DNA of 64,000 nucleotides from Cyanidioschyzon merolae (Eukaryota). Location: assembly GCA_000091205.1 (NCBI GenBank), contig AP006500.2. One strand, written 5' to 3'. Of this stretch, positions 19,101 through 41,080 are shown piece after piece; positions within the stretch are counted from its first letter, which is position 1, and every line of letters starts with the position of its first letter. The position numbers and the translations under genes are program-made. Under the pieces are notes generated by a model. The model did not search any database. It saw only the letters and a program-made list of their open reading frames with translations, and had not been told where the DNA came from.

Positions 19101-22100
19101 GCTCTGCTGGCGGTGAGTTTGCATCGCTGCAGCGCTCAATGGAGGCAGCAGCGTCCACCGAAAGACGGACTGATGCGGAATCCGCTGCGATAAACGCTGC
19201 ATGATCGATCCTTCCTCGATAGGTGTGAACGTCCACAGCGGGCGTCACTGGTGATGAGAAACCCGCTGACGACGGCGAGCTCGTGCGACGCGGTGTTTCG
19301 AATCGCTCATCAGTCGCTTCTGTGCTGCTTGGTCTGCGTTCGGGCACGTGACCAGCGGGAAGCGCGCAGACACTTGACGCTGAGGCACCAACGACGTCGC
19401 CATAGCGCTGCAGCAATGGTGATGCCTCCAGCATCCCAGCTGGTACAGACTGTAGCTGGCGCTCATCGGAAGCAGTACACGGGCTGTATGTGGCAAACCT
19501 TTCCCCCAGTGAGGTCGGCGACATTCCGGGCTCGCGCTCCAGGGACGACACCAGCGGTACTGCTGCTGCTGGCATGGGGCGCTCACCGTCCCTGCTCAGC
19601 GAGGCACTGGGATGCAGGTCCGCGTCGGCAGCAAACATACAAGGCAGCGGGTCTGTTCCGCGCCAGCGATACAGCAGGGTATAGCCGCGACACGCTACCG
19701 GAGAGCGCGTCGTTTGCCCAGGTACACAGCGATACGCATGGGCGTTCACCAGAACGATTTCAGGAGAACCAGCAGCACACACCGACTGGATGCGATGACT
19801 CGGGTAACGCTCGGGGATGACACCCGAGCGCCGAGTCCAAAAGCCGCCCTCGGAGACGCTGCTCTGCGTTGCTGCATCCGGGCGTGAATGACGCGACCTC
19901 GACCCGTCGTTTTGATGGAAGCGTTCGGCATCCATTCCAGCTGAGCTCGCTAGCGACATCCAATATGAGTGCAGGGCCGTCGTAGCGGAACTCGCCAGCC
20001 ACAGCGACGCTCGAAGCGATGCACGTCGCTGGGGCCTCGAAACACTGCGCTCTGGTGACGCAGCGTCAAGAACGCGTGCACCAGTGGGTGACGCAGTAGT
20101 AGCAGCAGCACCAGCAGCAGCAGATGCCTCTCTTTGGAGCAAGTTCCCGTCCTTGGGGCTAGCGCAGATTCCTTGGTTGCCCGTGGAACTGCCACTGAGT
20201 ACCTGCAGGAGTTCGCTTAACAACGGATGCCGCGCCCCCGCTCGACTGAGCGCCTGCTGGCGTTGGTGCAGAAGCGTGAAGCGTCGCCCAGGTTGCGGCT
20301 TGGAAGGCATCTGCATGGCATGGAGAGCCCAGCATTGCAGCTGCTCGTTGCCGTCGTATTCATCATAGCCACGGTCATGATGATGATGATGATGATGATC
20401 GTGGTGCTGATGATAGTGGGCACGTGGATTTTGGCCAAAGCTCGGGTACGACGCACAGCGTGGATAGCGAACGGATCGCCTATACGGCAATACACTCGTG
20501 CTGGCTGCACGTCCAGTGGCAGAAACACTACTTGCGCTAGCCTCAAGCGATTCGAGGACCTCCTCCAGCGCTTCCACATACCGTTCCATGAGATCGAGGT
20601 CGGTGGTAAGCGGGTCCTCGCCCTCATCTGGATACCTGGCAAGCGGTGCTACTCCAGTGGAGCCATCGCATAACGTTCGGGCGCTCTCGCCTGCCTCGAT
20701 TCCAGTCGAAGGCGACGAACGGTCACCTCGTGGGGATTGTTGACGCCGGACTGTGCCGCCGAGTGACGCTGAGCCAGCGTCTTGACGATACCGTTTGTGA
20801 TCAGTGAACGAGCTCGCCCGCAAGCGGCACCTGCGTTCGTTATTGATGAAATCCTGGAGCGACAGTGCACTTTCCCGAGCCAAAGTCGATCGATTTGTCC
20901 TTTCAGAGCCGCTGGCTGTGAACGATGCGTTTGGCGACTGCAACGAGCCCGACGAGGAGCACGAGGAAAACGCACCAGCCCCAGTTGCATGACGAAAGCC
21001 GCCGTTGATAAACAGTCGCCGTCCGTCCAGAGAGGTATCGGTCTGGAGGCTGGACCTTGACCGCTGCATATCTTCATCGCGAGGTGGTAATGGTGGTGGT
21101 GGTGGTGGTGGTGACCGCGCCTCCAGGCATGTCGTTCGGCTCGAGCTGCACCCGTGTATGCAGGATATGCTGCGACTGAATTTGTTGGGCACTGCAGCAG
21201 CGTTCGTCGGACACTCCTGCAGTGAGCCTTGAATGTTTGTTTTCCGTTCGAGTGCCTGGGTATCGAGTTGCTGGGTTTCCTGGGTCTGTCGCTGGCGGGC
21301 AGTATGTGTGCGCAAACTACAACCGCCAGACGCATTGAGGTCTCCGCTTACCAGGTCCGTCGGCAGCGCGGGGCCCGTATGTCGAGCAACGAGCGCTGCC
21401 AGCGACTCCAGCAATGCATCAATATCAAAGAGCGTCTCGAAAGGCACCGAGATCGACCCGTCAGCGAACAGATCGTGCTGGAAAGGATCATAGGACAGGC
21501 CTTCGAGGCATCCGGTGCGACGCTGTTGCCAACGATGCCAGAGCGCTTCGTCGCTGCTCTGGGATCGCTGTTCAGGAAGGGGCAGCTCATTCGCGACAGG
21601 CGCTGCCATGGAGGCCGCAGCACTGGCATCTACGCAAGCTGGTAGCTCAGGAGCATCAGCTGCTGCCACCAAAGGCTGTTTTGGGGTGCTGTCGAGTGCT
21701 CTGCAGGGTTTCGGTGCTGGAAGCGTCGACAGCGTCGTCGCGTTTGGTGCATGCTGGCGACCGCCGCGTTTCAGCTCGTGCAGCGAAGCGCCATGCTGTC
21801 GTTCGCCAACCAGTACAGGGAACGGTTTGTCGCTGGAATTCGGAATCAGAGAACGAAGGATGTCGTCAACGAGTCGCAGCGAGTCCCTGCCAATATGTAG
21901 CGGCAAACTCGCCGACCAAACTGACATGCGCTGCGGCATCTGTTGATCCTTATCCTGGTACTCAGCGCACAAACTCCACAGACACAACCGAATTAACGCC
22001 ATATCGCGTCGCATACGCAGAATGAATCGCTTCTGCAACCATGAACATAGTGCGCAACAACGATTCGACAGATACTCCGCGTCCTCTGGCTCAGGTCTGG

Positions 22101-23133
22101 GCGCGCTTGCGCAATGACGCTGGATGCGCGGTGGGCCTTCTGTTGCTGTTGTTGTTGTTGTTGTTGCTGCTGCTGCTGCTGCTGACGCGCGAGTCACGGT
22201 GTCCATGACGCTTGCGCCCAGCCGACGGGACGCATACCCGCGTGTCGACGATGTCGTTGACGAGGCGGGCGGTTGTACGCCAACCTCGCACGGCGATGAG
22301 GCATCAGCATCCCCGCAAGCCATGTGGATGCAGGGCGCGTACGCTGATGCGCACAAAACGGCTAAGCAGAGCTGCCACACCTCTCGACGCGTCAGCGCTG
22401 AGACTCCTGTCGTTGACCACCGCGCATCTAGAGCGGACCAAACGGCCTCGTTCGCCAGAGGATCATGATTCGCATTTGTATCCGAGGGTGTCCAGATCAA
22501 GTGTAACAAGAAGGACAAGAGTGCCTCTTCGTGTGTGATGCAGGTATCAAGCGGGTGTAGTTCACAGGAGCGCTTATTCGCAGCGGAGGCGGCTGTGGTA
22601 GGCGTCTGCTCCGAGACCGAATAGGACGCCTCCAGTAAGTCCAAAAACTGTACCTGTTTGAAGCCATCATTCAGTTTTCCGCAAGGTGTGTTCGATATTG
22701 TCGTCAGTTCCGGCACAACGACGGCGCTCGTACGCTGACGCGCAGCATCGCCGCGCTGGCCCAGCCAGCTGGTGCGTCGCGAGGTGTCGGCACCCTCGGG
22801 AAGCTCCCCGGAGACCGTAAAACGCGTCCCTGGTTCCAATACGGCACTCCACGGACCGGACAACGACAACGATGGAGATTCTTCGTAGCTGTCCAGCATT
22901 GGACCCTGTAGGTCTATGTGCGGCGCCTGTACATGCACACTTGCCTGCCGCGCAACAGTCGGGTGGTACTCGGCCCAGGAGCGCAGCGAACGCTCTGCGT
23001 CAGTGCGCGCCGAGGCATTCCCACGTTCCACAGGAGAAGCGACGTTGTCGGTCCGATCATCCGGACGAAAAATGCTGACTGTGATGCCCATGACACAATG
23101 CACCACAACGCTCTCTACGAAGAGCCAAAACAA
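16114..23133 (-). CDS. Giant (2339 aa) protein with C-terminal cysteine-containing leucine-rich repeats (F-box/LRR, FBXL/AMN1-like) and a long low-complexity N-terminal region
   Basis: Repeated CC-type LRR units: LDLSGCSHITDRGL, LSLAGCRSLTDEAF, LDLSSCIHLTDEGL, LDLSQCRLITDAGL, LDLFGAHITDRGMS, LNISQNMRISDAGL. PolyHis (HHDHHHHHHHD), polyS/T, poly-A/Q and P-rich stretches. The ORF is one uninterrupted 7 kb frame. Confidence 0.75.
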   Translation of the reverse strand: MFWLFVESVVVHCVMGITVSIFRPDDRTDNVASPVERGNASARTDAERSLRSWAEYHPTVARQASVHVQAPHIDLQGPMLDSYEESPSLSLSGPWSAVLEPGTRFTVSGELPEGADTSRRTSWLGQRGDAARQRTSAVVVPELTTISNTPCGKLNDGFKQVQFLDLLEASYSVSEQTPTTAASAANKRSCELHPLDTCITHEEALLSFLLHLIWTPSDTNANHDPLANEAVWSALDARWSTTGVSALTRREVWQLCLAVLCASAYAPCIHMACGDADASSPCEVGVQPPASSTTSSTRGYASRRLGASVMDTVTRASAAAAAATTTTTTATEGPPRIQRHCASAPRPEPEDAEYLSNRCCALCSWLQKRFILRMRRDMALIRLCLWSLCAEYQDKDQQMPQRMSVWSASLPLHIGRDSLRLVDDILRSLIPNSSDKPFPVLVGERQHGASLHELKRGGRQHAPNATTLSTLPAPKPCRALDSTPKQPLVAAADAPELPACVDASAAASMAAPVANELPLPEQRSQSSDEALWHRWQQRRTGCLEGLSYDPFQHDLFADGSISVPFETLFDIDALLESLAALVARHTGPALPTDLVSGDLNASGGCSLRTHTARQRQTQETQQLDTQALERKTNIQGSLQECPTNAAAVPNKFSRSISCIHGCSSSRTTCLEARSPPPPPPPLPPRDEDMQRSRSSLQTDTSLDGRRLFINGGFRHATGAGAFSSCSSSGSLQSPNASFTASGSERTNRSTLARESALSLQDFINNERRCRLRASSFTDHKRYRQDAGSASLGGTVRRQQSPRGDRSSPSTGIEAGESARTLCDGSTGVAPLARYPDEGEDPLTTDLDLMERYVEALEEVLESLEASASSVSATGRAASTSVLPYRRSVRYPRCASYPSFGQNPRAHYHQHHDHHHHHHHDRGYDEYDGNEQLQCWALHAMQMPSKPQPGRRFTLLHQRQQALSRAGARHPLLSELLQVLSGSSTGNQGICASPKDGNLLQREASAAAGAAATTASPTGARVLDAASPERSVSRPQRRASLRASLWLASSATTALHSYWMSLASSAGMDAERFHQNDGSRSRHSRPDAATQSSVSEGGFWTRRSGVIPERYPSHRIQSVCAAGSPEIVLVNAHAYRCVPGQTTRSPVACRGYTLLYRWRGTDPLPCMFAADADLHPSASLSRDGERPMPAAAVPLVSSLEREPGMSPTSLGERFATYSPCTASDERQLQSVPAGMLEASPLLQRYGDVVGASASSVCALPAGHVPERRPSSTEATDERFETPRRTSSPSSAGFSSPVTPAVDVHTYRGRIDHAAFIAADSASVRLSVDAAASIERCSDANSPPAELASEAFPRRHAMDALLSTATHQPDAHNSGFAKRTLHAATSALHQLLGAASPLSERARNDAEQDAVAGNSCRGRQCMSGPRSMRTGSGEDAGVARAGQQQAQCALLRLDNSASPNDGPKAGIWQDPLPRNSTWVRVQRLVSSPASGAADSGSEAFCEALLAVNASSHPRVRELVRRTLPPDIGDSVTILGFGAVPASLQTLCAQCFVQYTVDGQHADSHLDRYPQCQSMDAADAVNTFMASSWTAEAHLRQQARALVRLGVDASGMSASLLDGVQRAAAAPAAAAAWDSLPEPLLALCWEAAVASGIATPALLRFYAQRVAPQVTLTAADSGLWPNIGPGLQIRPAPVSLGHRFRVAAPYRTRIRDTWLLALAPAAAGAATLETLDLSGCSHITDRGLIGLAPHLRQLKECILDGCLGIWGPGVRALLRLCSKLERLSLAGCRSLTDEAFQGLASGVARGPCQRTSAGRFALKHLDLSSCIHLTDEGLGALVAALSTPEAKAGDSEDTAIESVATTEASAGLVAPLTTEALLYSSSSNSSSSGTLETLSVAHCFRLGDRSLRPLLRQHRQSLRVVDLSYTRITGAVLQELGALPQLQSLSLCGCGETLSVESDAATRFGEELALPGKQLVHLDLGKCAQLVTDGFLAALAGLASGRRTHHQYNRQQYQQNPAAVERLVHATHGVYSSRDTLRSLSVHGCRLTDRSLSHYVRLFQGLERLDLSQCRLITDAGLEHLQSLKSLRELDLADTNVTSAVGASLLARLRQLRRLDLSYTAVQSNITKSLSTLEQLEWLGLDARLISDDALQVEENEASPEPVSSRDVAAPALSSATVAVHLHRRIGLPRHLRHLDLFGAHITDRGMSYLVQACPYVESLEVCSGALTDAALRLIAQHLPYLRALNISQNMRISDAGLREYARLAQVQQDLGQPHLLETLNLAFTAVTWRGLAVLLPTLPYLRLLCVRGCNKDSFSAVSVQSLERMRPGLVILGAETDQPGS
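22145..22192. repeat. (TTG/CTG)n trinucleotide microsatellite inside the LRR-protein coding region
   Basis: ttgctgttgttgttgttgttgttgctgctgctgctgctgctg. Similar tri-nt runs lie at 20380-20402 (ATG)n, 21090-21115 (GGT)n, 23195-23240 (GCT/GGT)n, 15940-15966 (CGT)n and 17490-17512 (CTG)n. Confidence 0.8.
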
Positions 23134-23605: not shown

Positions 23606-25222
23606 TTTATTTTTCATGGAAAGTATCCTGCATTTCAGCAACATATCAGCACGACGTACGCAACGATTCCTTCGAGCGTGCGTTCGATACAGAACCAGTA
23701 GACGCTTTGGAAACAGACGATATTTCCGAAGGTTGATTGAGGCGTTCAGATCTCGGTAAGGAAAGTGCTTGTGCGCTCGGTTGCTGCTGGTGGCAGCAGA
23801 CGCTAGCGAGCCGCTCACTTTCGATTTTTCGCGCCATTCGACTTTCGGTTAACGGTTCGTGCACCAATCTCGGACATCTGTCTCTGTTTCACGCACTGCT
23901 TACCGAGTTGTTTCAAGGTGCAAACCTGCCCATGATTCGTGGACGGCACCCTCAACGCATCGACGGGAATCGTGTAAAATCGATGACTGCACTTGTTGGA
24001 TACGCGCTTATCATAGAATCAGGAGTGCTGGCTCTGCGCGCTCCAGCATGTCCAGCGCCATCAGCTACGATGGGAGAACGCGAGTTATCAGCGATCTCCG
24101 TTTCCAACTCGAAGAATCATTTCGTGAGCACGCGCTCCTTGACGCGATGCTACCGAAAATCGTCGACGACCGCAGCGCGGTCTCATGGACGCACCCTGAA
24201 TACAGCGCAGAAAGACTCGCTTCTCTTAGATACTGTGCTGAGAGCGTCGATATGGATGCGGAAGTCGGTATTCCATTCACTGGCATGCCGCCGGACGCCC
24301 GAAGATAACGAGCCCCGGAAGAATTGAGCAGATCCGATTACTCTCCATCCAGGCGTTGGATCTCTCCTCCGGATGAAGAGGTACAGCGTTGGCCACGGGG
24401 AACCGGCCGTACCTGGAATCGACGATCACCACTGGTCGAAGCACGATTTGCGGAAGACCGGTGTTCGGGATGCGAAGTGCTCGTGCATTGATCCGTGAAC
24501 GCAAACATGACATTTGATCACCACGAAGACGCCTCTGACTTGACCGACGCAGGGAGCATAGGCAGGCACGAGGAGCGGCTCAACGCCAGTCTCAGCTGCG
24601 TAGTTCGTGACCGCTTTTGAATGAGAGAAGCCGACGTTGTCAAAGAGCACGGCTGACGAATGCGTTGCGGAGAAGCCGCAAACGTGCCTCGACCAAGGAT
24701 GTCGTATCGAATGATCCTGTTCGTTTTTTTTCGGATTCGTCAGCGAGCACACCACTGACCCACTGATTCCGGCTCGAGTCGTCGTCACGCGTTCTTGTCT
24801 CCTGTTTACCGACAGAACGCGGGCTTCTCTTTGTGTGCCCCCGTATAACGCTACCGCTTCTCTCTCGAGTCAGACGACTACCCGTGGATCCTGTACCAAC
24901 TGCTCGCATTCCAGGTCGACCCCGATCGCGTACTGATCAACGCGAGACGGTCTCCCGTGGACGCATGCGTTTCACTTCTTCCGGCCGAGTCTCTGCTTTA
25001 ACGCTCGCATCAACGGTACGGAAACTTTACATTCTGTGGCGTTTTCGTGGTGACCTGCCTTTGGAATCGTATAAAGTTGAATCGATTGACGACGAGATCT
25101 TCATGTAGATGGAGCTGGATATGTTCTCTTTCGGGTGCATGACGTCCAGGATACGGACGACGAGATGGACCATTCGTGTGCCTGCTGACGGTAATCCATC
25201 TGACTTGCATCAATAATTCCGT
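23606..25222 (+). repeat. Inverted-repeat copy A (~1.6 kb), nearly identical to the inverted copy at 34537-36146
   Basis: Six-frame ORFs in the two regions encode the same peptides on opposite strands: 23737-24327(+) vs 35435-36025(-) differ at 3 of 196 aa; 24833-25108(+) vs 34654-34929(-); 24426-24788(-) vs 34974-35336(+); 25010-25213(-) vs 34531-34752(+). Boundaries were placed where identity decays. Confidence 0.9.
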
Positions 25223-27070
25223 ACAGCCTCAGATATTCCAGAATCCACTGCACTGGGCGGAACCTGAATCCCCTTGGGATGCTTTTCGTGCTACCGCTGG
25301 CACCCGGAGAACTGCCAACAGCGCCTTCGTAGATACCTCTTTCTTCGACTGACTCCCTACCCGTTTTCTTCCGTCTCGAATAGATCCTGCGACGTGATAA
25401 GTGTGTCGTCGGCAATGATGCAACTGTACTTGACGATGCTGGATGTGCTGATACCGTCGTCTGTGCGGGGCAACGCCTCCGACCTTACCGTGCATGCGGA
25501 GACGACTGCCCAAGGTAGCGGCGTCTGAATGTGCGCTCCGGGTAGCGAGCGCCGGTGCCTCCGCTCTACGGGAGACACACGGTAGCAGTCGGGTGCTGTC
25601 CGTAGCGGTTAAGGGAACTTGCCATGCTGTCGTTTCAGCCAGTGCTGGCTCGTACCTTTACTGCTGCCAACTGGCAGCGCTCTAGTCTCAACTCAGGAGC
25701 TGACGCGCACGCGAGGACGTTCCTGAAGAGAAGCACGTACCCAGCGACTGCTTCGTGTACACGCCGAGCACAACCGAGCCCCACGAGCACCGTCCAGTTC
25801 CTGATGTGTAAGGGTGATGAAAAGCCAGCGTACTTGCGGTTCCCGATACCCGCGTATGGTTATCTCGGCATTTCGAGCGTACTGGCGATTGCGGCAATAG
25901 GTTCTGTGTTCGAGCTCAGCTCCGGGAAGCCGCAGTACGGGGTCGTGTTCACCGCGAGCGTGTTGGCTCTGAGCCTGCCCGGGTTTCTGGCCACCTTCTG
26001 GCTCGCTTTGGAAAAGGGACGAGACGAGTCTGACCAATAGCTTTCAAGGGTTTGGGAGTAGGAGGAGCCCCGCCCTGGCATCGCTTGCAGGCTGGAGAGA
26101 GAGGCGAGCGCTTCACCAGCACGATCGCGTTCGCGACCGAGCTCGCCTCGCGTCTCTTGGCAACGGTTGCGCTACTTTGGCCTGTTGCCGGCAGCAAACA
26201 TGTACCCGTGGGAGTTCTGGTGCCAAATGTCGATCGTATACCATGAACAAATGCGTACGTCGACTTGAATAAGAACGGACTCTGGCTTCTGAGTGGAGTG
26301 GTTTTCGCCTCATCGGAGGCGAGCTGCACAAGCCTGTCGGAAAGGGAGCGGGAATGCCGAGTTTCGTGCCGCCAGCGCAAGTGCACCGTGCGACACGTCA
26401 TTAGATGCAGCCATCAGGGCCTTGACTGAAGACCATGGGTCGAAATACCATGATCACATTCGGGATACAAGGGCTCTACCTGAGTCGCTCGGGTGCACGC
26501 AACGCGCTTGGCGACGACGACGACACCAGCGCACAAGGCGCGACGTCCTGCCACCAAAGGATCGATACGCAGCGCCGCCTTACAGACGTGCATATCTGAG
26601 GAAATACCGCCAATACGAGGGGTCTCTTTACCGAAGATGCATGTCCTGCAGCATGCCTGCACAGGCTGCATTCGTGAAAGGCATGCAGAAAATAGGTTAA
26701 CGGCCGTCAATAGTATGATTGGAAAGGAAGCGAGTTCGCTGAGCATCCCAGCACGAGATCAATGGGTGCGTAGCAGCGGCCTGCATGAACGCTGTACTGT
26801 GCGACAAGCGACGCGATTTGCAGCATCCCAGGTTATCGCTGAGGCCAGTGCCTGGGGTATATGATTCTAGATGCTTTCATCGCGTGGTCTTGTACCATCG
26901 GCGTACTCAGGTGATATGGGTGTTTTCCGGGTGTTCAGTGCCGGAGCGCTCCGTGGCTTATCGGCTGAGCGCCCAGCCAGCCGAATTTGGCGACCTACGC
27001 GATGGCGCCTGTGCGTATGCCCCGAAAGCTTCGCGTACGGAATTCATTGTCTATGTATGTGTTTGTGCTC

Positions 27071-27095
27071 GTACGTGTGTGTGTGTGTGTGTGTG
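27071..27095. repeat. (GT)n dinucleotide microsatellite
   Basis: gtacgtgtgtgtgtgtgtgtgtgtg. Confidence 0.8.
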
Positions 27096-27170
27096 CCCCA
27101 ATGGTGATGTGTGCATTGCGCGAGCGACGAATGACGCCATATCCCGGGGCTTGATCGTCGACCAGCGGAC

Positions 27171-28088
27171 TCAAATAAGATTACGATGCGTTTGTTGGGT
27201 CTGGTTGCAAGTCAGCTTAGCGTGCGTTTGCTGGAGCGCATTGTCAAGAACACGAAGCTCATCGATCCACTCCAACCAGCCGATGTTGTTCCAGTAGCGA
27301 TACTGGAGGCGCCAGCCTCTCCGAACGCCGTCACTGACACTGGCATCCGGATACGCCCAGGCTTGTAGAACCTGTTGTGGGCTCAGCGGCATCGTACGCC
27401 AATGGGCGCTAGCTAGTCCTTCAGCTGTTGGTGCTGGTTCTGCGTTCTTTGACGCGTCTTGCGGAGGTTGCACGCCCATTGCCTGCACCCATTCGAGTGG
27501 CACGCGATAGCCGTAGCAGGCTCGGCAGAGGCCTTCCCCGAGGTATCGCCTTCGAGTCACTTCCATGGCCAGCTGGCGAACGAATTTCTCTAAAGAGCCC
27601 ACACAATCCCAAAAGACATGCTCGCTCCAGTGCATCTCGTGAAGAAGCGTTGTCAGGTTCGACCGCACCGGTCCGTCGAAGGACGTCACAAGCTGCTCAT
27701 TGAGTTCGAGCACGAGACGATCGCCCTCGTGGACTGCCTCCTGCATCCGAGTCAGATTTTCAGCGATACCTTGTAGTGCCTCCTCTATACGCGACGTTTC
27801 CCTTTCTTGCACTTTGTCGAAGGCCGTCCCAGACTGACCCGAGACCGTCACAGGAGAAGCTGTGCCCGGGACGTCGAGGACTTCAAAAACCCAGTGGTGC
27901 TTGCCCAGGACACGAACGGCCTCGATGCACTGGCAAGCCTCTGCTGCGGTTGCAGCGTGCTCGAGTGCCGCGAGATCAGCCTCATGAAATCGTTGACCGA
28001 GAGGCGCAGCAGCTAAAAGAACTCTAACGAGACGGAGCGCCAGACGCAGGGCACGTTTACGCTCAGATCGTTCCCGAGGAGGTCGCAT
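27171..28088 (-). CDS. Hypothetical protein (305 aa) with no recognisable domain
   Basis: Longest ORF in an otherwise ORF-poor 4.7-kb interval. Its amino-acid composition is protein-like rather than the R/A/P-rich profile of GC-driven spurious frames. It lies divergent to the CPR gene. Confidence 0.35.
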   Translation of the reverse strand: MRPPRERSERKRALRLALRLVRVLLAAAPLGQRFHEADLAALEHAATAAEACQCIEAVRVLGKHHWVFEVLDVPGTASPVTVSGQSGTAFDKVQERETSRIEEALQGIAENLTRMQEAVHEGDRLVLELNEQLVTSFDGPVRSNLTTLLHEMHWSEHVFWDCVGSLEKFVRQLAMEVTRRRYLGEGLCRACYGYRVPLEWVQAMGVQPPQDASKNAEPAPTAEGLASAHWRTMPLSPQQVLQAWAYPDASVSDGVRRGWRLQYRYWNNIGWLEWIDELRVLDNALQQTHAKLTCNQTQQTHRNLI

Positions 28089-29589
28089 GAAGCCGCGAGC
28101 TTTTCAACGGTCGATAACAGCTAGGGTTATGGAACGTCGTGCGTCACGCACGCATCGCCTATTCGTTTCGTTGTAATTTCATTGGTAGCTTCAGGTCGAC
28201 GACGCTGAAACGCAACCGGGGCACAAGCAGGAAAACGCCGAGCGCCTGTACGAGCAGTTCGAACACCTCGACTGCGCAGTGGAGACGCGTTGCGGTTTCG
28301 GGACGCGGTTATGGTGTTGGTGCAGGGACCACTACAGTCGCAGAATCGTTGTTTTGGGGAAACGAGAATTGAGGCTCTGCAAAAGCAGTTTGTATTTTCT
28401 ATACGTGTCCAAATGAAACATGAAAGATCTGTTTGAGAAAGAGCGTCACTCATGAGAACAGCGAATCGCGCAACCGCTTACAAACGTTCATCGAGCCAAA
28501 CCCGACCAGCGCAGGAGACGTCTTGCCGAAGCACGGAAGAGGGCGCACGCGATTAGCACGAGTCATTCTCTCTCTGGGAGATGCTGCTGGTGCCAAACCT
28601 GAGAACTTTTTTCGAACGACGAAGGGAAACGAAGTGGATTGGAACTTTTTGAAAGAGAGCGTGAGCGAACGCGGATATTCTCGCTGTGAAAGCTCTATAG
28701 GATCTTCCGAGGAACTAGAGGGTGATCCAGGTCCGAGGCACGGATGTCCAACGTACTGATCCTGAATCAGGCAAAGATGACGATGCTGAAGTCGCCACTT
28801 AGGCAACAGGTACGGTACTGGATCGGCTGCGATGCCCTGGACGTTTCTGCAAACATACCGTTGGCGCGTCTGCTCGTTGCGAAATCGGTATATGAAGTTG
28901 CGAGATGTTTGCATTGCGAAGATGTGCAAACCACCCTCTGAATGAGTTTACAACGCACCAAGTAACTTCAGGCAGGCAGGCAGGCAGGCGTTGGAAATAT
29001 CTGCGCCTGGCGTCACGCGTGCGAAAAGAACACTGCTCCATGGCGCGCTCGATAAACATGGAAGCGGAGCAGCGTATGCCAGGCTGGGATTCGTCGAGCC
29101 ATATTGCCCCGTCAGAGGAGCTGAGATCGATTCCACCGTTGCCAACAGCATCCGGTTCATCTAGGGCAGGATACTTGTATGCAACGCTGCTGCAGCGAAA
29201 GAGGGCGAGATCCTCTCACCTGCATGCGATGCCTCACCTCCGTGCGAGTGCTGTCTTCGCTTGCCGACAAGAGTCACAACTCCGTTGTTTCGCCTGCACA
29301 CAATGCGGATCACCCAGTGACAAGTTGCGCATGTTTGCAAGTACGTGTCAGGGCAGCGGCGTGCTTCTCTGAAACCTGGTGCACCAACGCTCGCTGCGGT
29401 ATTCGCGAGCAGCAACCTGCACTAGCGTTCGCTACTCCTTTCCGTTTCTTCCGCGAATCACAGAGCATTGCAGCATTATTCGGTGAGAATCTATTCTTTG
29501 TACATAAAACGGGCGCCAACAAACCTTCCCAGCGGTCACATATCGATCTGTTGTCCATGGATCAATGACACTCATGCCCTGTAACGTTA

Positions 29590-29745
29590 CGTCTTGCCTC
29601 TAGTGCACCGCCTGCCCACCTAGTTACCTCGCTACCTACGTTCTTACCTACATATTTACTTACCAACATACCTATTTACCTACTTACCTACCTTCTTACG
29701 TATCTACTCACCTATCTACTTCCGTTTGTACCTGCCGATCTAGCT
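29590..29745 (+). repeat. Strand-asymmetric pyrimidine-rich TACCTAC-like low-complexity tract ~180-330 bp upstream of the CPR start codon
   Basis: cctacgttcttacctacatatttacttaccaacatacctatttacctacttacctaccttcttacgtatctactcacctatctacttccgtttgtacc: almost no G, repeated TACC/TACT words. Confidence 0.7.
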
Positions 29746-29920
29746 GCCAGGCCGCCACGTGGATACGTTGTCCAATGGCGGCAGCGATCGACGGCCGATC
29801 GTCCACAAATCGACGGTGGCATTCGTCTGGGGCGCGCGGCCTCACAGCGCGGCGCCTACTGCCTCGTCAACGGCGTTACATTTCTAACGGTTTACGCTCA
29901 CGCTACCAGAGCCACGGATA

Positions 29921-31891
29921 ATGCTAGGTGCAATTCTTCTAATTGCGGCTTTTTGGGTGTTGCTGCGTTCGCTGCGCTCTGTGTGGACAGGTTTCTCAGG
30001 TTCGAGTGCAGCGACAAAGAAGAAACTAAAAGCCGCGAAGAGGAATCGCTTTGAGGACTTTCTCCTCGACGATAAGGTGCGTGCTGGATCGAGTGGCTTA
30101 TCGAATGGCGTTTCCGCTGCCCCAGTTACCGCATCCGACGCTGCAGCTAGCATTATTCAAGAGGCGTTTGAGAACGCTACCACAGGCGGCTTACCTGTGC
30201 TTGTTCTCTACGGAACGGAATACGGCTTTTCCCGTCAGGTGGCGAAGCACGTGGCAACCGAGCTATCGCAACGTCTCCAGGGTCGCGTCTCGCCGCGAGT
30301 GCTAAACATGCTCCACCACGATGTGGTTGATTTTCGGCGTGAACCGATACTGTTGGTGGTCTGCTCCACCACCGGTGACGGGGTCGTTCCGAGTGACGCT
30401 CGTGCGTTCGCAGACCGCCTGGAAGCACGCTCGCTCCCGGTGTCAGCGGATACGCGCTATGGTGTGCTTGCTTTAGGCGACCGCGCCTATCCTCACTTTT
30501 GCCGCGCCGGAAAGCTCCTCTCCGAGTGGTTCCAAACGCTGTGTCCGGGACCAGGTGCAGCGCTCGCCGAAAGGATGGATGTGGATCAGGAAGACTGGAC
30601 AGCCATCAATGCGTGGATTCACGCAGTGGTTTCGGCACTGGAGAAGGAACTGTCGAAGCGCTCCCTGCCTGTCCCGGAATCCGACTATCTTCGAGCCAGT
30701 ATTATGCAAGGAGGAGCCCTGCTTGCCGAATTAGCAAACGATATGAGTCGGCGATATTCGAAAGAGGCACCGTTTCTCGCCCGGATGGTGGTGAAACGCC
30801 TGCTCACGCGCCTGGTGGAGCCCGGTGACAAAGAAACCTATCACATTGAACTAGACATTACTGGGTCAGATCTGAACTATCTTCCAGGGGATGCGCTCGG
30901 TGTGATTCCACGGAACGCTCCCGATATCGTTCGAGAGACGCTGGCGGCGTTGCGTATGCAGGGCTCCGAGCCCCTGGACGACCAAACTTCGGTGCGTCAG
31001 TGGCTCGAGGAGCGCGCTGATCTCAAACATGTACGCGGTTCAGCGCTGATTGCTCTGCTTCGGAAATCTCTCGACAAGAGTACCGCTGCGGACGAGTGCG
31101 AGCTTGCGGATACGCTCCTTCACGACGACCAAACGATGCAAGCGTTTCTCTACGGACGCGAGCTCGCAGATGTGTTGCTTGCGTTCCCATCGGCGCGTTT
31201 GGCGCCGTGTGAACTCACCCAAGTCGTCCGCTCGCTGCAACCTCGCTTCTATTCCATTGCGTCCTCCCCGACAGCACACGATCCGCAGAAAATCGCGCTC
31301 ACTGTGGCCGTCGTACGGTATGCATGTCATGGGCGCAACCACAAAGGAGTCGCAACGTGCTACCTCGCAGATCAGGTCCAGCCCGGAGATCTAGTGCCTG
31401 TGTTCCTTTCGCGCAACCCGAACTTCCGCCTGGTCTCTGATCCCCAGCGCCCCGTCGTGATGATCGGACCTGGTACCGGTGTGGCGCCTTTCCGCGCATT
31501 CACTGCCGAACGCAGAGGTTGCACGGGGCGAACGCTGTTGTTCTTCGGCAGTCGCCATCGTGATCGCGATTTCCTCTACGGAGACGAGTTCGAAGCGTTG
31601 GCTCAGACCGGTCAAATCGAGCTGTACACCGCGTTTTCGCGAGACCAGTCCGAAAAAATATACGTACAACACCGCTTGGTGGAACGGGCTCGTGATCTGT
31701 TCGACTTGATTTGGCGGCACGGCGCCTATATTTATGTGTGTGGAGATGCCGCACAGATGGCGCGTGATGTCGACCACGCCATACGTAAGATATTGGCCAC
31801 CGAAGGATCACTCAGCACTGATCAGGTCGACGCATTCATGCAAAAACTGGAACGCGAGCAACGCTACCAGCGGGACGTCTGGGTGGAGTAA
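29921..31891 (+). CDS. CPR: NADPH-cytochrome P450 reductase-like diflavin oxidoreductase (656 aa) with an N-terminal membrane anchor
   Basis: N-terminal hydrophobic anchor MLGAILLIAAFWVLL. Flavodoxin/FMN domain (VLVLYGTEYGFSRQVAKHV ... LLVVCSTTGDGVVPSDARAF). FAD-binding RFYSIASSP motif. NADPH-binding VVMIGPGTGVAPFRAF and C-terminal YVCGDAAQMARDV ... DVWVE, typical of the CPR/sulfite reductase flavoprotein family. Confidence 0.8.
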   Translation: MLGAILLIAAFWVLLRSLRSVWTGFSGSSAATKKKLKAAKRNRFEDFLLDDKVRAGSSGLSNGVSAAPVTASDAAASIIQEAFENATTGGLPVLVLYGTEYGFSRQVAKHVATELSQRLQGRVSPRVLNMLHHDVVDFRREPILLVVCSTTGDGVVPSDARAFADRLEARSLPVSADTRYGVLALGDRAYPHFCRAGKLLSEWFQTLCPGPGAALAERMDVDQEDWTAINAWIHAVVSALEKELSKRSLPVPESDYLRASIMQGGALLAELANDMSRRYSKEAPFLARMVVKRLLTRLVEPGDKETYHIELDITGSDLNYLPGDALGVIPRNAPDIVRETLAALRMQGSEPLDDQTSVRQWLEERADLKHVRGSALIALLRKSLDKSTAADECELADTLLHDDQTMQAFLYGRELADVLLAFPSARLAPCELTQVVRSLQPRFYSIASSPTAHDPQKIALTVAVVRYACHGRNHKGVATCYLADQVQPGDLVPVFLSRNPNFRLVSDPQRPVVMIGPGTGVAPFRAFTAERRGCTGRTLLFFGSRHRDRDFLYGDEFEALAQTGQIELYTAFSRDQSEKIYVQHRLVERARDLFDLIWRHGAYIYVCGDAAQMARDVDHAIRKILATEGSLSTDQVDAFMQKLEREQRYQRDVWVE

Positions 31892-33077
31892 GCCAAGAAA
31901 CCGTGGTGAAGGCAAAGCGCGTCCGAGTCGGACCGGCGTCTCGACGCCAGTGCGTTCCCGGAAGGAGTTCGCTGCACGGTGTTGGATTCCAATTCCCAGG
32001 AATACGAGTACGTTAGTAGATTATTTAGAGGGCATCGCAAGTGCAGCGAGGCTGCGAGAACCGCGCTTCCAGTGACAGGTGCAAGTACTAGACCCCGACG
32101 ACGGACATGCTCCCCGTCACCGTGTTGTTCTATAAAGATGATCTGGTCTAGGTGTTGCTGTTGCTGTTGCAAGCTGATAACGAGAAGCGTGTGCTCGCAC
32201 ATGGATCAGATTTCTGGCACATTGCATCGCTCCATGCAGTGCGTATCGACGCGAGCACAGGCGGGTCACGCGAGTGCCCAGCTACGGGTGCCAAGCAGCG
32301 GATGACGACGTGCATGTCGCTGTGCTTGCTGTGCGCATCTCTCTCGCCGCGACCATATTTGTGGCGGCTCTTTCCGAAGCACGACCATACTTGCGAACTT
32401 GCACACGCAAACGCTAACGAGGTTCCTGGGTCCAGCATCTGTTGTGCATTCGCGACCGATACGCGAACAGCTTTTCGGTGACACACGGCAAGCACATGCC
32501 GCTCTGAATTTTGCCCGCAACCCGGTTTTGCCTTCCACAGGATACCCGTCATCAGAAACGAGAACAGAGTGGTACAATAGCCGCGCGAACTGGTGTAGAG
32601 GGAAACAACCACAGGCCTCGAGCAAAACACAAACTTATTCGTAACCGCGTATCTGCCATATGCCACATGATTCATGAAAACGGCTACGGGACGTCTCTTC
32701 ATGCCGCAACCTCGAGTCGGCGATCTTCTCGACACTGGACGCACGCTCTGAGACATGATTCTGGAGTCGGACGCTCTTGAGCAGCGACCTTGCCACAGTG
32801 ATGCCACGTCGTCCAGGCAACACTAGCCCTTGCATACACACGGATGCAGCCGCCTGCATCACCACCATCGATACAGGTCTGCACCAATAGCAGCAATATT
32901 CCACTTGGTGACGTTGAAGGCGCCCTGCCCGAAACCTCCAGGAAGGTCCTGGCCGCGCTCGCATCGCGCAGACACACCTAGCTGCTCACGATTCTAGTTC
33001 AGCAAGGACTAGTCGCTCGGTGTGCGCCACGTTCGCTTGCTCCCATAAAACATCTATTAGCTGCGAATACGACCTTT

Positions 33078-33785
33078 CTAGTTCGAATCTTTTTTGCCCC
33101 GCAACTGTAGGCTAGTCGAAGACTTGCGATCCGTAATATCCTGATCACGAGACTTGTTCTTGGAATCGCCAGCGTTCGGCCCAGAGCGCTTGCCCTGACC
33201 CGTCTTCCCGTCCTTGACCTTGCTCCCTTTCTCAGGTAGATTCTTTTCATTCATTCGCTGCTGCATTTTTTCCATGGCCTGTTTTTGGACGCGCTCGAGA
33301 AACTTAAGGATTACGTTTTCACCTTTGGAGTCTTTCGGTGGTGGCAAGAAACGCTGGTGCGGCCTTCCCAGTGCCCAGTTCTTCAAGTTCTCATAGGTCG
33401 TCGCACCACATATCCATCCTTTGGTCCTCTTATTGTAGAAAAAGGGAACTCCTCCACAGGACCCATTCTTGTCGAGCTTCTGCAGGAGCCGCAGGTTATC
33501 GTCCGAGTACCAAACCTCGAAGCGACGGATCGGAACCCCCAGTTCCTTCTGCAGTCGCTCCATCAACGGCTCCATATCCACACAGTGATCGCATTCGATC
33601 CCATAAAACTCAAGGAGGTGCGATCGGGAAGCCAGTTCTTTACTCGGCATCGTGAACGCTTCCACGGACGCTGCGTGGTTCAGGAAGCGTCTTGCCCGAA
33701 TGATGGAGAAGGGAGCGTGCTCTGTCGATTGTGCGTACCGCCGCCACTGCCGCCGCCGCCGCCGTCGCCGTGGATGTTTCAGCAA
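33078..33785 (-). CDS. Thioredoxin-fold protein with a CDHC (CxxC) active-site motif, an arginine-rich N-terminal presequence-like region and a lysine-rich C-terminal tail
   Basis: EFYGIECDHCVDMEPLMERL places the CxxC at the thioredoxin-fold N-cap position. A downstream GSCGGVPFFYNKRTKGWICG block is conserved in plant/algal thioredoxin-like families. The MLKHPRRRRRRRQWRRY N-terminus may be a targeting peptide, or the true start may be the internal Met (MPSKEL). Confidence 0.6.
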   Translation of the reverse strand: MLKHPRRRRRRRQWRRYAQSTEHAPFSIIRARRFLNHAASVEAFTMPSKELASRSHLLEFYGIECDHCVDMEPLMERLQKELGVPIRRFEVWYSDDNLRLLQKLDKNGSCGGVPFFYNKRTKGWICGATTYENLKNWALGRPHQRFLPPPKDSKGENVILKFLERVQKQAMEKMQQRMNEKNLPEKGSKVKDGKTGQGKRSGPNAGDSKNKSRDQDITDRKSSTSLQLRGKKDSN

Positions 33786-33983
33786 AGGCCGCTGTCACTC
33801 CGCGATGGCATTTTTGTACAGATTTATACAGAAGCAATCCGGGGTACGGGTAAGCGCACGTTCTGATGCGTGCATTCGTGTTCGGGTCGCTGTGCCGCGG
33901 AATCAAACTTTGGAACTATACCAGAGCGTGATGCAGTTGGCGTGTCGAAAGATAGGGTGTGCTAGCTCGAAAGCTTAAGTATT
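33786..33983. promoter_or_regulatory. Putative bidirectional promoter region (198 bp) between divergently oriented thioredoxin-like and zinc-finger genes
   Basis: Inferred only from the head-to-head arrangement of the two start codons. No motif was verified. Confidence 0.3.
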
Positions 33984-34415
33984 TTGGAGATGGAGAACTT
34001 GCTCCGCCGGGCCAAGCTCTGGAACGTGCCTGAGGGTGACGAGTGGCGCCTCGAAACGTGTCCAACGTGCAACGGCAAGGGTTTGATTATTTGTCCGTGC
34101 TGCCACGGGCGGGGCAAGTGTCTCTCGCTTGTGTTGTTTGTGAATATGGATACGCCGTGTTTGCTGTGCTTCGGAAACCCAGAGGTGACGTGTGGCAACT
34201 GTGAAGGCAACGGTAAGTTCGTCGTGACTCCTGACGGCCGGTACTGGTGCAAGCCGCCCAAGTATCGACGGAAACCGCCTCCGGGTGTGTCGAGCTGGAA
34301 CTTGTTCGCGAATATCCGGTTTCCGACGCAGGAACTGCCGCCCGAAGTCGCTAACGCCATCCGAGGTTTGAAGTTCGACGTTTTCGGTCAGGTGATCAAG
34401 CGCACCAGTGAATAG
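33984..34415 (+). CDS. Small DnaJ-type (CxxCxGxG) zinc-finger protein, BSD2/PSA2-like (143 aa)
   Basis: CPTCNGKGLIICPCCHGRGKC and CLLCFGNPEVTCGNCEGNGKF give four CxxC(x)G(x)G units typical of the DnaJ cysteine-rich domain. Confidence 0.65.
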   Translation: MEMENLLRRAKLWNVPEGDEWRLETCPTCNGKGLIICPCCHGRGKCLSLVLFVNMDTPCLLCFGNPEVTCGNCEGNGKFVVTPDGRYWCKPPKYRRKPPPGVSSWNLFANIRFPTQELPPEVANAIRGLKFDVFGQVIKRTSE

Positions 34416-34536
34416 TGGGGTAATTGTACAGGTGCGCGCTTCTCGTTTCTCGCTGGTATTCTAGAAGAGCATTTTATACCGTAGTGTTGAGAAAATTCGA
34501 TCAGAAAGGCTGCATGATTTCGCTGATCGTTTGCGA

Positions 34537-36146
34537 AAAACGGCATTATTTATGCAAGTCAGATGGATTACCGTCAGCAGGCACACGAATGGTCCATCTC
34601 GTCGTCCGTATCCTGAACGTCATGCACCCGAAAGAGAACATATCCAGCTCCATCTACATGAAGATCTCGTCGTCAATCGATTCAACTTTATACGAGTCCA
34701 AAGGCAGGTCACCACGAAAACGCCACAGAATGTAAAGTTTCCGTACCGTTGATGCGAGCGTTAAAGCAGAGACTCGGCCGGAAGAAGTGAAACGCATGCG
34801 TCCACGGGAGACCGTCTCGCGTTGATCAGTACGCGATCGGGGTCGACCTGGAATGCGAGCAGTTGGTACAGGATCCACGGGTAGTCGTCTGACTCGAGAG
34901 AGAAGCGGTAGCGTTATACGGGGGCACACAAAGAGAAGCCCGCGTTCTGTCGGTAAACAGGAGACAAGAACGCGTGACGACGACTCGAGCCGGAATCAGT
35001 GGGTCAGTGGTGTGCTCGCTGACGAATCCGAAAAAAAACGAACAGGATCATTCGATACGACATCCTTGGTCGAGGCACGTTTGCGGCTTGTCCGCAACGC
35101 ATTCGTCAGCCGTGCTCTTTGACAACGTCGGCTTCTCTCATTCAAAAGCGGTCACGAACTACGCAGCTGAGACTGGCGTTGAGCCGCTCCTCGTGCCTGC
35201 CTATGCTCCCTGCGTCGGTCAAGTCAGAGGCGTCTTCGTGGTGATCAAATGTCATGTTTGCGTTCACGGATCAATGCACGAGCACTTCGCATCCCGAACA
35301 CCGGTATTCCGCAAATCGTGCTTCGACCAGTGGTGATCGTCGATTCCAGGTACGGCCGGTTCCCCGTGGCCAACGCTGTACCTCTTCATCCGGAGGAGAG
35401 ATCCAACGCCTGGATGGAGAGTAATCGGATCTGCTCAATTCTTCCGGGGCTCGTTATCTTCGGGCGTCCGGCGGCATGCCAGTGTATGGAATACCGACTT
35501 CCACATCCATATCGACGCTCTCAGCACAGTATCTAAGAGAAGCGAGTCTTTCTGCGCTGTATTCAGGGTGCGTCCATGAGACCGCGCTGCGGTCGTCGAC
35601 GATTTTCGGTAGCATCGCGTCAAGGAGCGCGTGCTCACGAAATGATTCTTCGAGTTGGAAACGGAGATCGCTGATAACTCGCGTTCTCCCATCGTAGCTG
35701 ATGGCGCTGGACATGCTGGAGCGCGCAGAGCCAGCACTCCTGATTCTATGATAAGCGCGTATCCAACAAGTGCAGTCATCGATTTTACACGATTCCCGTC
35801 GATGCGTTGAGGGTGCCGTCCACGAATCATGGGCAGGTTTCCACCTTGAAACAACTCGGTAAGCAGTGCGTGAAACAGAGACAGATGTCCGAGATTGGTG
35901 CACGAACCGTTAACCGAAAGTCGAATGGCGCGAAAAATCGAAAGTGAGCGGCTCGCTAGCGTCTGCTGCCACCAGCAGCAACCGAGCGCACAAGCACTTT
36001 CCTTACCGAGATCTGAACGCCTCAATCAACCTTCGGAAATATCGTCTGTTTCCAAAGCGTCTACTGGTTCTGTATCGAACGCACGCTCGAAGGAATCGTT
36101 GCGTACGTCGTGCAGATATGTTGCTGAAATGCAGGATACTTTCCAT
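34537..36146 (-). repeat. Inverted-repeat copy B (~1.6 kb), reverse complement of 23606-25222
   Basis: See copy A. Nucleotide identity inferred from the peptide comparisons is about 98-99%. Confidence 0.9.
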
Positions 36147-37776
36147 GAAAGACTCAGAGGCCAGAAGCGAGCGCATTGGAATCCCGGCTGGAGCATACCA
36201 CTAGAATATCGTACGGTTCAGCAATGTAGATAGGCTATGGCGCCGTATACAACATCTCGGAACGCTTTTTCGTCGTCATTAGCGTATGACCATGGCACTC
36301 CAGTTTTCCATGTCACTGGGTATCTCAGGCGCAAGTCTTATCAGCCTCTCGAGAAACACGGACGCAGTCCGGAACCCGATTGACCGATACACTTGGCCGG
36401 CTATGGAGCAGACGCTTTCCGTTGCCTTATCAGGCCAAATTACAGTGTACAACTCTGTCATGCCGCCTGGTTCGATTGCTCGAGTACGGCGTCGGATTAC
36501 CGCTTCTCGGAGCGCTGGCTAAGAACATGCAGTGTTCGTACATTGAAGCAATTGCCCTGACGACATTCCAGGGTCGCTGGGAAGGCGATGCATTTTAGAA
36601 TGGTCGCACAATATGCAGCTTGACAAGGTTCCGCGTCAATGTTGCGGTCGGCGTTCGAATGCGTTATGCGGTGTCCTGCTCCTCGAGTCATGCACGCTTC
36701 TTTCTATCCATGCCCTGGACGCTTCTCCAAACCACAGCTAGCGCTATGCGGTCAAGCGCCTCAAAGCGTCCGATCGTATTCATCTGGTTTGGCGCTACTA
36801 GGGTCCACAGAAACGCAAGCATTCAGATGAACTGAGAAAAAAGCAGCGCCTGGCAGCACAAGCTGCACGCTCATGGACGCTGCATTCACGCAGTGACCAC
36901 GTAACCAGCGAGAGACGGATATGCACATACAGACGCGGGACCGTCCAGAATTTCGGGTACATGTACGCAAACATGCACCGACCGCTTCGTATCGAAAACA
37001 CCCAAGGACTAGAGCCTTCCGTCGTTTATCAAACCGGGGTGTGATGACCCACGACCGAAACGCACGCTTTCTGCTCGCCGTAAAACGCGCGTGGAACAAC
37101 TCCATAGCTGTCGAGTGTCCAGCTACATACCTGGAGCCCAGATAGCAACTCGTGAAGCCGTCAATACGAACTCCAATCGGGGTTCAAAATCTGCGAACAT
37201 GACCATTAGATTTCGATGCCCGTTCATCGGTGCTCACTGCTGACCTCGATTCCCGCCTAGTCGCTGTCCCACTGTTCCAGATTCTCCTCCTGATTTCTCC
37301 ACAGCGACCGAAGCTCCATGCGATCCGGGGCGGCTGGCGTGTACCAAGGTCTGCATAGCTTCTGTGGAACGCTTCCGCTAGACATGCATCGTTTGTATGC
37401 TCTCCTGTGTGCCTCGGGAGTCGAAGCTGTTGAGGGTAAACTCGACTATGAAAGGCACCATGATTCTGCGGTTGCGAAGCAGCGCATACTCGATACGTTC
37501 ATTGTCGAGTAATCGGCTCCGATCGAGTTACTTGCGGGGCGGCATGCCGATACTTTTTCGATGAATCAGCACCGCCGCGCTTTTCAAAGTAGCGACCTGT
37601 ACCATGATGCACTGCACTGCCCATAGCGGACAAACTTTCGGCCATGGCTTCCGGAATGACCATCATCCTCTCCGACACAGGAGCCAGGACTGCTGAATCC
37701 AAGCACGACGCTCAACCAATCCACCCGAGTACGCTACCGGGGTACCGTGCTTCGCATTCGCCCCCCTGTAAACTGT

Positions 37777-39375: not shown

Positions 39376-39790
39376 TCGCTCCCAAACGGAATCAGTTTAT
39401 AGTGTTATGGACACGATGTAGACACCTCGGAATAAGTTATATTTTTGGACTTCACTGCTCCGAACGGAATCAGTGTGTTGTATCATGGATACCATCTAGA
39501 CACCTCGGAATAAGTTATATTTTTGGACTTCACTGCTCCGAACGGAATCAGTGTGTTGTATCATGGATACCATCTAGACACCTCGGAATAAGTTATATTT
39601 TTGGACTTCACTGCTCCGAACGGAATCAGTATGTTGTATCATGGATACCATCTAGACACCTCGGAATAAGTTATATTTTTGGACTTCACTGCTCCGAACG
39701 GAATCAGTGTGTTGTTTCATGGATACCATGTAGAAACCTCTAAATACGTAATACTTCTCGACTTCACTGCTCCAAATGCGCATCCCAAGG
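39376..39790. repeat. Minisatellite, 78-bp unit x ~5.3 copies, AT-richer than its surroundings, ending ~100 bp upstream of the ORF at 39887
   Basis: Unit cactgctccgaacggaatcagtgtgttgtatcatggataccatctagacacctcggaataagttatatttttggactt. Full copies start at 39452, 39530, 39608 and 39686, with diverged copies at both ends. Confidence 0.9.
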
Positions 39791-40765: not shown

Positions 40766-41080
40766 AGTGCCTTCTCAGCGGAATACTGCCTTGGCGTCGT
40801 AGGCGGCCGCTGAGCGGCTGCCGAACACAGTCGGGTACCACGCGTACCGGTAAACGCGTCTATAGAGACAAAAGAGACCTGGGGTCCCCGGATACCGCAC
40901 TGTACTGAATACCGCGAGGCCTCAGTTGAGGTTTCTGATACATCGTACCGGCGCAAGGGTCAGTTGACTCGTCACCTCGGTGCTGCGTTCGACGGTAGCT
41001 GGTTCAGGGTGCCCTACCAGCGCCAGCGTCACCTTGTCCACAGCGAGCGGCACTGAAGGTATACGAGCGCTGCCGCTGAC

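Follow-up and report, generated by a model that had tools for sequence, protein, structure and literature searches.

What is the long inverted repeat that encloses five genes on chromosome 18 of Cyanidioschyzon merolae 10D, and how did it come to be there? C. merolae is a minimal model eukaryote, valued for its scarce transposons and repeats. The repeat lies within a stretch of 64,000 nucleotides (GenBank assembly GCA_000091205.1, contig AP006500.2), here called the window, and consists of two 1.6-kb arms, A and B, on either side of a 9.3-kb segment. We find that each arm is likely a copy of one dead, internally deleted DNA transposon that carried a transposase gene and a gene for Fanzor1, a eukaryotic TnpB-like nuclease, and that the pair now serves as a passive substrate for recombination.

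A repeat scan of positions 20-40 kb aligned 23612-25222 (arm A) with 36150-34540 (arm B) as reverse complements over 1611 nt, with 99.38% identity, 10 mismatches, and no gaps. The same single large inverted pair was returned by self-BLASTN of the whole window. Similarity ends sharply at both edges, and the 120-nt flanks on each side are unrelated. Base-by-base comparison places the mismatches at 23648, 23921, 24259, 24277, 24456, 24672, 25066, 25146, 25211, and 25218; two of the ten thus fall within the final 12 nt of the inner edge. Arm A has its transposon sense on the minus strand, with the Fanzor end facing outward to a leucine-rich repeat (LRR) protein gene and the transposase end facing the segment between the arms. 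Arm B (34540-36150) has its transposon sense on the plus strand, and the Fanzor ends of both copies point outward. The 9317 nt that separate the arms (25223-34539, the spacer) hold five genes. An earlier note on this DNA had described a contiguous inverted repeat of ~1.6 kb at 23606-25222 and 34537-36146, with 98-99% identity. Both searches bear out the repeat and its near-identity, and the boundary check by self-BLASTN that the note proposed yields one contiguous block of 1611 nt; the coordinates were 3 to 6 nt off and the identity was put slightly low.

All four arm/flank junctions were found in contigs from hot-spring metagenome and Sequence Read Archive (SRA) assemblies, which are independent of 10D and ~99% identical to the window. 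The outer A junction is covered by L010, L012, L013, and L017; the inner A junction by L001 and L044-L050; the inner B junction by L001, L003, L032, and L037-L041; and the outer B junction by L011, L016, L018, L019, and L033-L036. Since every junction recurs in independent contigs, the repeat is real and no product of misassembly in 10D. It is present in several natural populations on two continents, ~1% diverged from 10D. Numerous assemblies terminate precisely at the arm edges or k-mer-deep in an arm, and one contig (L002) equals the spacer exactly. Two contigs (L018 and L034) carry in arm B a 48-nt tandem duplication of 36000-36047 that is not in 10D.

The arms contain no long open reading frame (ORF); the longest that starts with ATG has 131 aa. 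The frames had been called unrecognisable in the earlier note, yet profile searches identify them as remnants of an IS630/Tc1-type transposase and of Fanzor1. The 147-aa open frame at 34893-35333 obtained 33 matches in a phmmer search of 1.8 billion representatives. The longer matches are proteins of ~300 aa that hit Pfam DDE_3 with E values of 4.5e-26 to 6.6e-18; intact relatives of this length score 110-127 bits on the NCBIfam IS630 model NF033545 (curated cut-off 100) and show D-34-E spacing. A hidden Markov model (HMM) of 301 positions, built from 10 of these intact relatives, recovers the DDE core in both arms: at 34893-35333 (plus strand) in arm B, with E=1.2e-20 over positions 148-287, and at 24429-24869 (minus strand) in arm A, with E=1.3e-20. 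A 120-aa ORF in arm A also gives a weak DDE_3 match (E=0.007, below the Pfam cut-off), while Pfam found nothing in full six-frame translations of the arm with stops written as X. The arm frame is therefore best described as a putative decayed transposase of the IS630/Tc1 (DDE_3) type, that is, the homology of a remnant.

The catalytic triad (DD34E) of this transposase is not intact. The second catalytic Asp is retained in ‘LFDN’. The catalytic Glu is lost, the arm reading ‘PAYAPCVGQVRG’ against ‘PPYSPWFNPIEG’ in the relatives, with an Arg at +35 from the second Asp. A stop falls in the region of the first Asp, and the upstream part of the transposase is disrupted by stops and frame changes. 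A remnant of the N-terminal helix-turn-helix, ‘RLHDFADRLRKTALFMQVRWITVSR’, is found at 34507-34627 on the plus strand (HMM positions 12-49, E=0.014), and its distance from the DDE core is as expected. The spacer-side flank contributes the first 33 nt of this remnant, which are not part of arm B. This flank adds ~10 bits to the transposase score, which 0 of 20 shuffles match, whereas the flank of arm A adds nothing. The helix-turn-helix remnant thus reaches beyond arm B, and the inner edge of the arm truncates the transposase near codon 23. Slightly more transposon sequence probably survives in copy B than in copy A.

Several readings of the arm frames were dropped. ‘LADESE’ (~35021) had been taken as the first catalytic Asp followed by an internal deletion, and was withdrawn when the HMM showed that the core continues in another frame. 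A 196-aa frame on the strand opposite to these remnants (23737-24327, mirrored at 35435-36025) matched only the same locus from another sample and is probably spurious as a gene. Codon-usage scoring trained on the long ORFs of the window did not separate real small genes from arm frames.

The remainder of the arm became legible through intact relatives. Two contigs from uncultured organisms (L052:393-3299, 60% GC, and L053:3-2909) carry a two-gene element in which a 300-aa transposase is followed, after 115 nt and on the same strand, by a 629-aa ORF. A profile of 624 positions made from 23 homologues of this ORF (alignment A1) has the invariant motifs DPGR, DEFR, and RDxNAAxNI, and matches solved Fanzor1 structures from Parasitella (9cf0, 1.3e-13), Spizellomyces (8gkh, 1.2e-6), and Guillardia (9cer, 0.004). 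The profile was needed for this, as the single 629-aa ORF had no phmmer match in the Protein Data Bank (PDB). Dozens of homologues occur on stand-alone contigs of 2-4 kb, and one occurs in the green alga Tetrabaena socialis.

Three pieces of Fanzor1 are collinear in the arm, on the strand of the transposase. The first (35427-35552, plus strand, in arm B; 24210-24335, minus strand, in arm A) covers profile positions 400-441, with E=0.0075 in B and 0.001 in A. The second (35756-35887, plus; 23875-24006, minus) covers positions 523-566 with E=0.0013 and contains RuvC-II; the region is also matched by tblastn with the intact 629-aa ORF (E=6e-4). The third (35932-36093, plus; 23669-23830, minus) covers positions 562-612 of 624 with E=2.5e-5 and contains RuvC-III, whose motif is kept as ‘RDLNASINLRK’. 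RuvC-II reads ‘VDALR’ instead of the conserved ‘VDEFR’, so that its catalytic Glu is gone. The part with RuvC-I (profile positions 1-399) is missing, and the arm has no complete RuvC D-E-D site. About 1.2 kb has been deleted internally, between the transposase and Fanzor parts. The Fanzor ORF would stop near 36130, ~20 nt inside the outer edge of the arm. Judged by homology, the arm is a predicted transposase pseudogene joined to a Fanzor1 pseudogene of which the final third remains. No part of the window matched Rfam, although no model specific to the guide RNA (omega RNA) was built, and a tRNA scan of the window found nothing.

Other decayed copies have the same layout. In L028-L031, too, a transposase is followed by Fanzor, and nucleotide identity to the arm (67-75%) is confined to the transposase. 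None of the decayed copies in L025-L031 has an NCBI member in the 90% clusters of its neighbouring genes, which indicates that they derive from uncultured relatives.

Is such an element known? Elsewhere, Fanzor1 rides in Tc1/mariner-type elements (Bao & Jurka 2013, PMC3627910). The arms resemble these in having a DDE_3/IS630 transposase followed by Fanzor1 on the same strand, and differ in being dead: ~1.2 kb is deleted, RuvC-I is absent, both Glu residues are replaced, and there is neither a terminal inverted repeat nor a TA duplication. The only C. merolae Fanzor family listed in that study is CMe-1A, with ~150 copies and no transposase; this is the 3.2-kb element, which encodes Fanzor1 without a recognisable transposase or terminal repeats (PMC3627910). 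As far as the sequence goes, C. merolae once held a putative transposase-linked Fanzor1 lineage, second to CMe-1A and distinct from it. The window also contains a decayed Fanzor1 element at 55391-57527 (plus strand), with six collinear frames (E 1e-30 to 1e-6) that include ‘CDFNAAINIRK’; it coincides with a low-GC, strongly GC-skewed region at 55-58 kb and probably belongs to the abundant CMe-1A family. A weaker second Fanzor1 remnant lies at 61395-61700 (minus strand). No transposase remnant adjoins either of them, and neither resembles the arms at the nucleotide level.

In the 10D genome, Nozaki et al. (2007, PMC1955436) reported 253 copies of a 3.2-kb WSV486-related element and eight class II elements with weak similarity to bacterial transposases (E 0.07 to 6e-7). 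An IS630-like remnant would be expected to show similarity of this strength, and the arms are plausibly two of these eight elements; that paper mentions neither an inverted pair nor a Fanzor part. As far as we could find, the inverted-pair arrangement is undescribed in the literature. The pair itself is an ordinary transposon-derived structure of known kinds and changes no general principle.

We find no sign that the arms could still move. Comparison of the two ends of an arm, and of the B-side extension with the 3′ part, revealed no terminal inverted repeats (best score 17, shuffle mean 18.5). Neither copy is flanked by a TA or any other target-site duplication, nor is the whole 12.5-kb unit. 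At A the flanks read ...TTTATT / arm / ACAGCC..., and at B, in the same orientation, ...TGAGTC / arm / TTTTCG...; the test is imperfect in that the true 5′ end at B is undefined. With dead catalysis, stops and frameshifts in both genes, and no terminal inverted repeats, the arms would no longer be mobile. One scan of the JGI metagenome collection recovered nine contigs with a 22-mer from the outer edge; some map to the outer flank of A and others to that of B, and the remainder match arm sequence alone. No third context was found, which suggests that there are two near-identical copies in these natural populations. Several suggestions of the earlier note can be judged here. Its view of the arms as a non-autonomous, transposon-related unit is upheld, the catalytic residues having been lost. 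A ‘repeat family’ is not supported by the 22-mer scan, which finds the two near-identical copies only; a foldback element would have sub-repeated termini, which are lacking; and inspection of the flanks for the target-site duplications sought at 23606 and 36146 revealed none.

Comparison with relatives dates the arms. CPR is one of the spacer genes, and we located its orthologues with 10-kb flanks in Cyanidiococcus yangmingshanensis (67% identity), an uncultured relative (68%), and Cyanidium caldarium (57%). Gene order in Cyanidiococcus is LRR(-), CMR438(+), CMR439(-), CPR(+), thioredoxin-like(-), zinc finger(+), SecE(-), exactly as in 10D, and Cyanidium mostly shares this order. The syntenic loci of Cyanidiococcus and Cyanidium lack arms and inverted repeats, as well as any remnant of a transposase or of Fanzor, and BLASTN and tblastx of the arm against the syntenic loci of the relatives found no similarity. 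In Cyanidiococcus, the two intergenic gaps that bear the arms in 10D are ~1.8-2.0 kb shorter. This armless synteny implies that the arms were gained in the Cyanidioschyzon lineage, that the 10D orientation of the spacer is ancestral, and that no composite transposon brought in the 9.3-kb segment. Both copies were thus gained after Cyanidioschyzon split from Cyanidiococcus, into a locus whose five genes already stood in order. In Cyanidium caldarium (L024:13838-15501), the SecE-like and zinc-finger genes are reversed in order and orientation when set against the other two genera, the result of a small, old inversion. Arm B was later gained at the same spot.

The arms exchange sequence. We tabulated the ten diagnostic sites across all contigs with their flank context. 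Two of them, 25211 and 25218, lie 12 and 5 nt from unique flank and are therefore phased by single reads. At these sites, arm A has C,T in 10D, L001, and L046-48, whereas in L045, L049, and L050 it has the A,G typical of arm B. Arm B, in turn, has C, the arm-A allele, at 25211 in L033, L035, and L036. The same alleles thus appear at the same sites in both arms and change together, the hallmark of gene conversion. In the interior (23921-24456), haplotypes are likewise found in both arm contexts, with apparent recombinants; since the two arms can be mixed up in short-read assembly, we give this little weight. Under uniform spread, the concentration of differences at the edge has an estimated P of ~0.003. 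Conversion would hold the interior of the arms at 99.4% identity and leave the very inner edge to drift. Arm B differs by 1.0-1.4% between 10D and L033, L035, and L036; the adjoining outer flank differs by ~0.65%, and 10D and MS1 differ by 0.71% (PMC13353863).

Which events placed two copies here? One history, which we infer because the outer edge falls where the Fanzor gene ends and because conversion is active, has two nearby insertions of the same, already defective element, a later loss of the transposase end of A, and concerted evolution thereafter. We put its chances at about even. The other, which is possible though on balance doubtful, has a single insertion at B that decayed, followed by copying of a 1.6-kb piece, from about codon 23 of the transposase to about the end of Fanzor, into the promoter region shared by CMR435C and CMR438C, where it ended up inverted. 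The agent would be break repair or template switching, not transposition. Such a late partial duplication accounts directly for the internal deletion, stops, frameshifts, and lost catalytic residues that the arms have in common; for an inner edge that lies inside the transposase ORF; for the 25 codons beyond arm B that score as transposase N-terminus, unlike the flank of arm A; and for the lack of terminal repeats, of target-site duplications, and of any copy beyond these two. The outer edge fits it poorly, as it falls ~20 nt past the predicted Fanzor end, near the expected end of the element, which for a random breakpoint would be a coincidence. Moreover, active gene conversion means that shared decay needs no late duplication, and the inner-edge clustering of differences suggests that the arms are older than their 0.6% divergence implies.

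The same observations bear on our view that each arm is a copy of a dead transposase-Fanzor1 transposon, and several points count against it. Without target-site duplications or terminal repeats, an origin of both copies by transposition is not demonstrated. The inner edge of the arm cuts through the transposase at about codon 23, and copy B seems to hold transposon sequence absent from A, which fits a partial duplication from B to A equally well. The Fanzor pieces are individually weak (E 1e-3 to 1e-5) and convince solely through their collinearity and the RuvC-III motif. Finally, the interior haplotypes of short-read contigs may be mixtures of the two arms, the edge sites alone being safely phased.

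If the arms are a passive recombination substrate, does the segment between them invert? If the two arms crossed over, the 9.3-kb segment would be inverted with no gene broken. C. merolae has efficient homologous recombination in gene targeting (PMC3764038) and meiotic recombination (PMC13353863), so that a crossover between 1.6-kb arms is mechanistically expected. In four samples, contigs (L033-L036) run in reference orientation from the spacer through arm B to the SecE-like gene. One short-read contig, L014, is the sole carrier of a flipped junction, with the B end of the spacer, a full arm, and the outer flank of A. In its sample group both arms seem to be of one haplotype, so the path taken by the assembler may be arbitrary. 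L017, which has B-type edge alleles, was considered as a second flipped contig and rejected, because in L049, which comes from the same sample, arm A is itself B-type there, a case of conversion and not of inversion. A long-read comparison of 10D with MS1 Ha3 reports one inversion and one translocation, and the rearrangements it magnifies are on chromosomes 3 and 19, not 18 (PMC13353863 and its supplement); a 9-kb flip could escape a whole-genome dot plot, yet nothing in that comparison points to one. Flip-flop inversion, as proposed in the earlier note, is thus plausible and unproven.

These features resemble inversions by non-allelic homologous recombination (NAHR) between inverted repeats, such as pairs of transposons or segmental duplications and the flip-flop of plastid inverted repeats. 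The likeness lies in the long, 99.4% identical inverted arms, the unique segment between them, and the signs of conversion; the difference is that here the flipped junction is seen in one short-read contig only. A stronger claim would be that the 9.3-kb segment is a natural, recombination-driven inversion polymorphism flanked by remnants of a Tc1/IS630-Fanzor1 transposon lineage so far undescribed in this alga, with L014 as a true flipped haplotype. We consider this unlikely. If true, it would offer a simple, tractable system for intrachromosomal recombination and gene conversion in a nearly repeat-free eukaryote.

The locus might also be a selected invertible switch, or a chromatin boundary, that regulates the enclosed redox genes, given that the repeat is retained across natural populations on two continents and that L014 carries a flipped junction. 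There is, however, no recombinase and there are no site-specific motifs at the locus, and the sister genera have the same genes without the arms. A flip would leave every gene with 400 nt or more of its native flank, followed by an identical arm, so that no change of expression is expected. In the L014 sample both arms appear to share one haplotype, which may make the assembler path arbitrary, and the comparison of 10D with MS1 Ha3 highlights rearrangements only on chromosomes 3 and 19 (PMC13353863). Regulation of this kind therefore seems highly improbable.

Two inverted copies of one transposon around a cargo are the classical layout of a composite transposon, in which the arms would be the ends of a mobile unit that brought in the 9.3-kb redox segment. 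The earlier note had raised this option, and we find it barely credible: Cyanidiococcus has the cargo in the same, ancestral order and orientation without arms, and Cyanidium mostly likewise; the 12.5-kb unit has no flanking duplication; both copies are catalytically dead and lack terminal repeats; and the transposase ends face inward, one of them truncated. The bacterial composite transposons Tn5 and Tn10 are alike in having two IS-like inverted copies around unrelated genes. Here, by contrast, the cargo is ancestral, the copies are inactive, and no duplication flanks the unit, so that the locus is a look-alike and not a member.

Although near-identical repeats are a classical source of misassembly, the chance that one arm or the orientation of the segment is a reference error is negligible, since all four junctions are reproduced in assemblies from at least 10 samples, L033-L036 traverse the entire arm B in reference orientation, the 10D orientation agrees with the gene order of Cyanidiococcus, and the 10D sequence was finished telomere to telomere (PMC1955436).

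As a pair of transposon remnants, the arms mark one of few sites where ectopic recombination can rearrange the C. merolae genome. Near CMR435C-CMR443C they can also mislead short-read assemblers and upset gene-targeting constructs. Given the sexual cycle and long-read assemblies, the pair could serve as a natural reporter for gene conversion and inversion.

The arms bracket CPR, the thioredoxin-like gene, and the zinc-finger gene, as the earlier note had recognised, and they enclose two further genes. From arm A to arm B, the spacer holds CMR438C (25624-26040, plus strand; an ORF of 138 aa); CMR439C (27171-28088, minus strand; an ORF of 305 aa with an exact look-up match); CMR440C, which is CPR, annotated as ‘sulfite reductase flavoprotein alpha-component’ (BAM82615.1; 29921-31891, plus strand; ORF, Pfam, and exact look-up); CMR441C, thioredoxin-like (33078-33785, minus strand; ORF and Pfam); and CMR442C, a zinc-finger gene of the BSD2/DnaJ type (33990-34415, plus strand; ORF and Pfam). 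Outside the arms lie the LRR protein gene CMR435C (16114-23133, minus strand) and the SecE-like gene CMR443C (37777-38457, minus strand), whose 3′ end is ~1.6 kb from arm B. Arm A had been placed in the 5′ flank of the LRR gene, correctly, as the start of CMR435C is ~480 nt away. The site of arm A is the divergent promoter region of CMR435C and CMR438C, whereas arm B occupies the 3′-3′ gap between CMR442C and CMR443C. CMR438C is a real conserved gene: it has the same length in Cyanidium and 77% identity over 81 aligned residues in Cyanidiococcus. Arm A thus splits a divergent promoter region that CMR438C has in common with the LRR gene.

Around the 5′ end of CMR441C (~33640-33930), where the frame runs through an Arg-rich tract (RRRRRRR), many independent contigs start or stop; a variable simple repeat probably breaks short-read assemblies there. 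One contig (L043; JGI 3300050366, Ga0506594_000175) matches the spacer from 25576 onward, and its first part (L043:1-672) is unrelated to the window. This part encodes a calreticulin-like signal and N-terminus followed by an ApoD/crustacyanin-type lipocalin ORF with high GC content at third codon positions (GC3), and may stem from chimeric assembly, structural variation, or an engineered construct. Elsewhere in the window, we noted four tandem repeats: a 78-nt unit in ~5 copies with 88-94% identity (39378-39773), a 78-nt unit in ~4 perfect copies (60785-61109), a 118-nt pair with a spacing of 128 nt (40521-40766), and a 75-nt pair (3357-3507).

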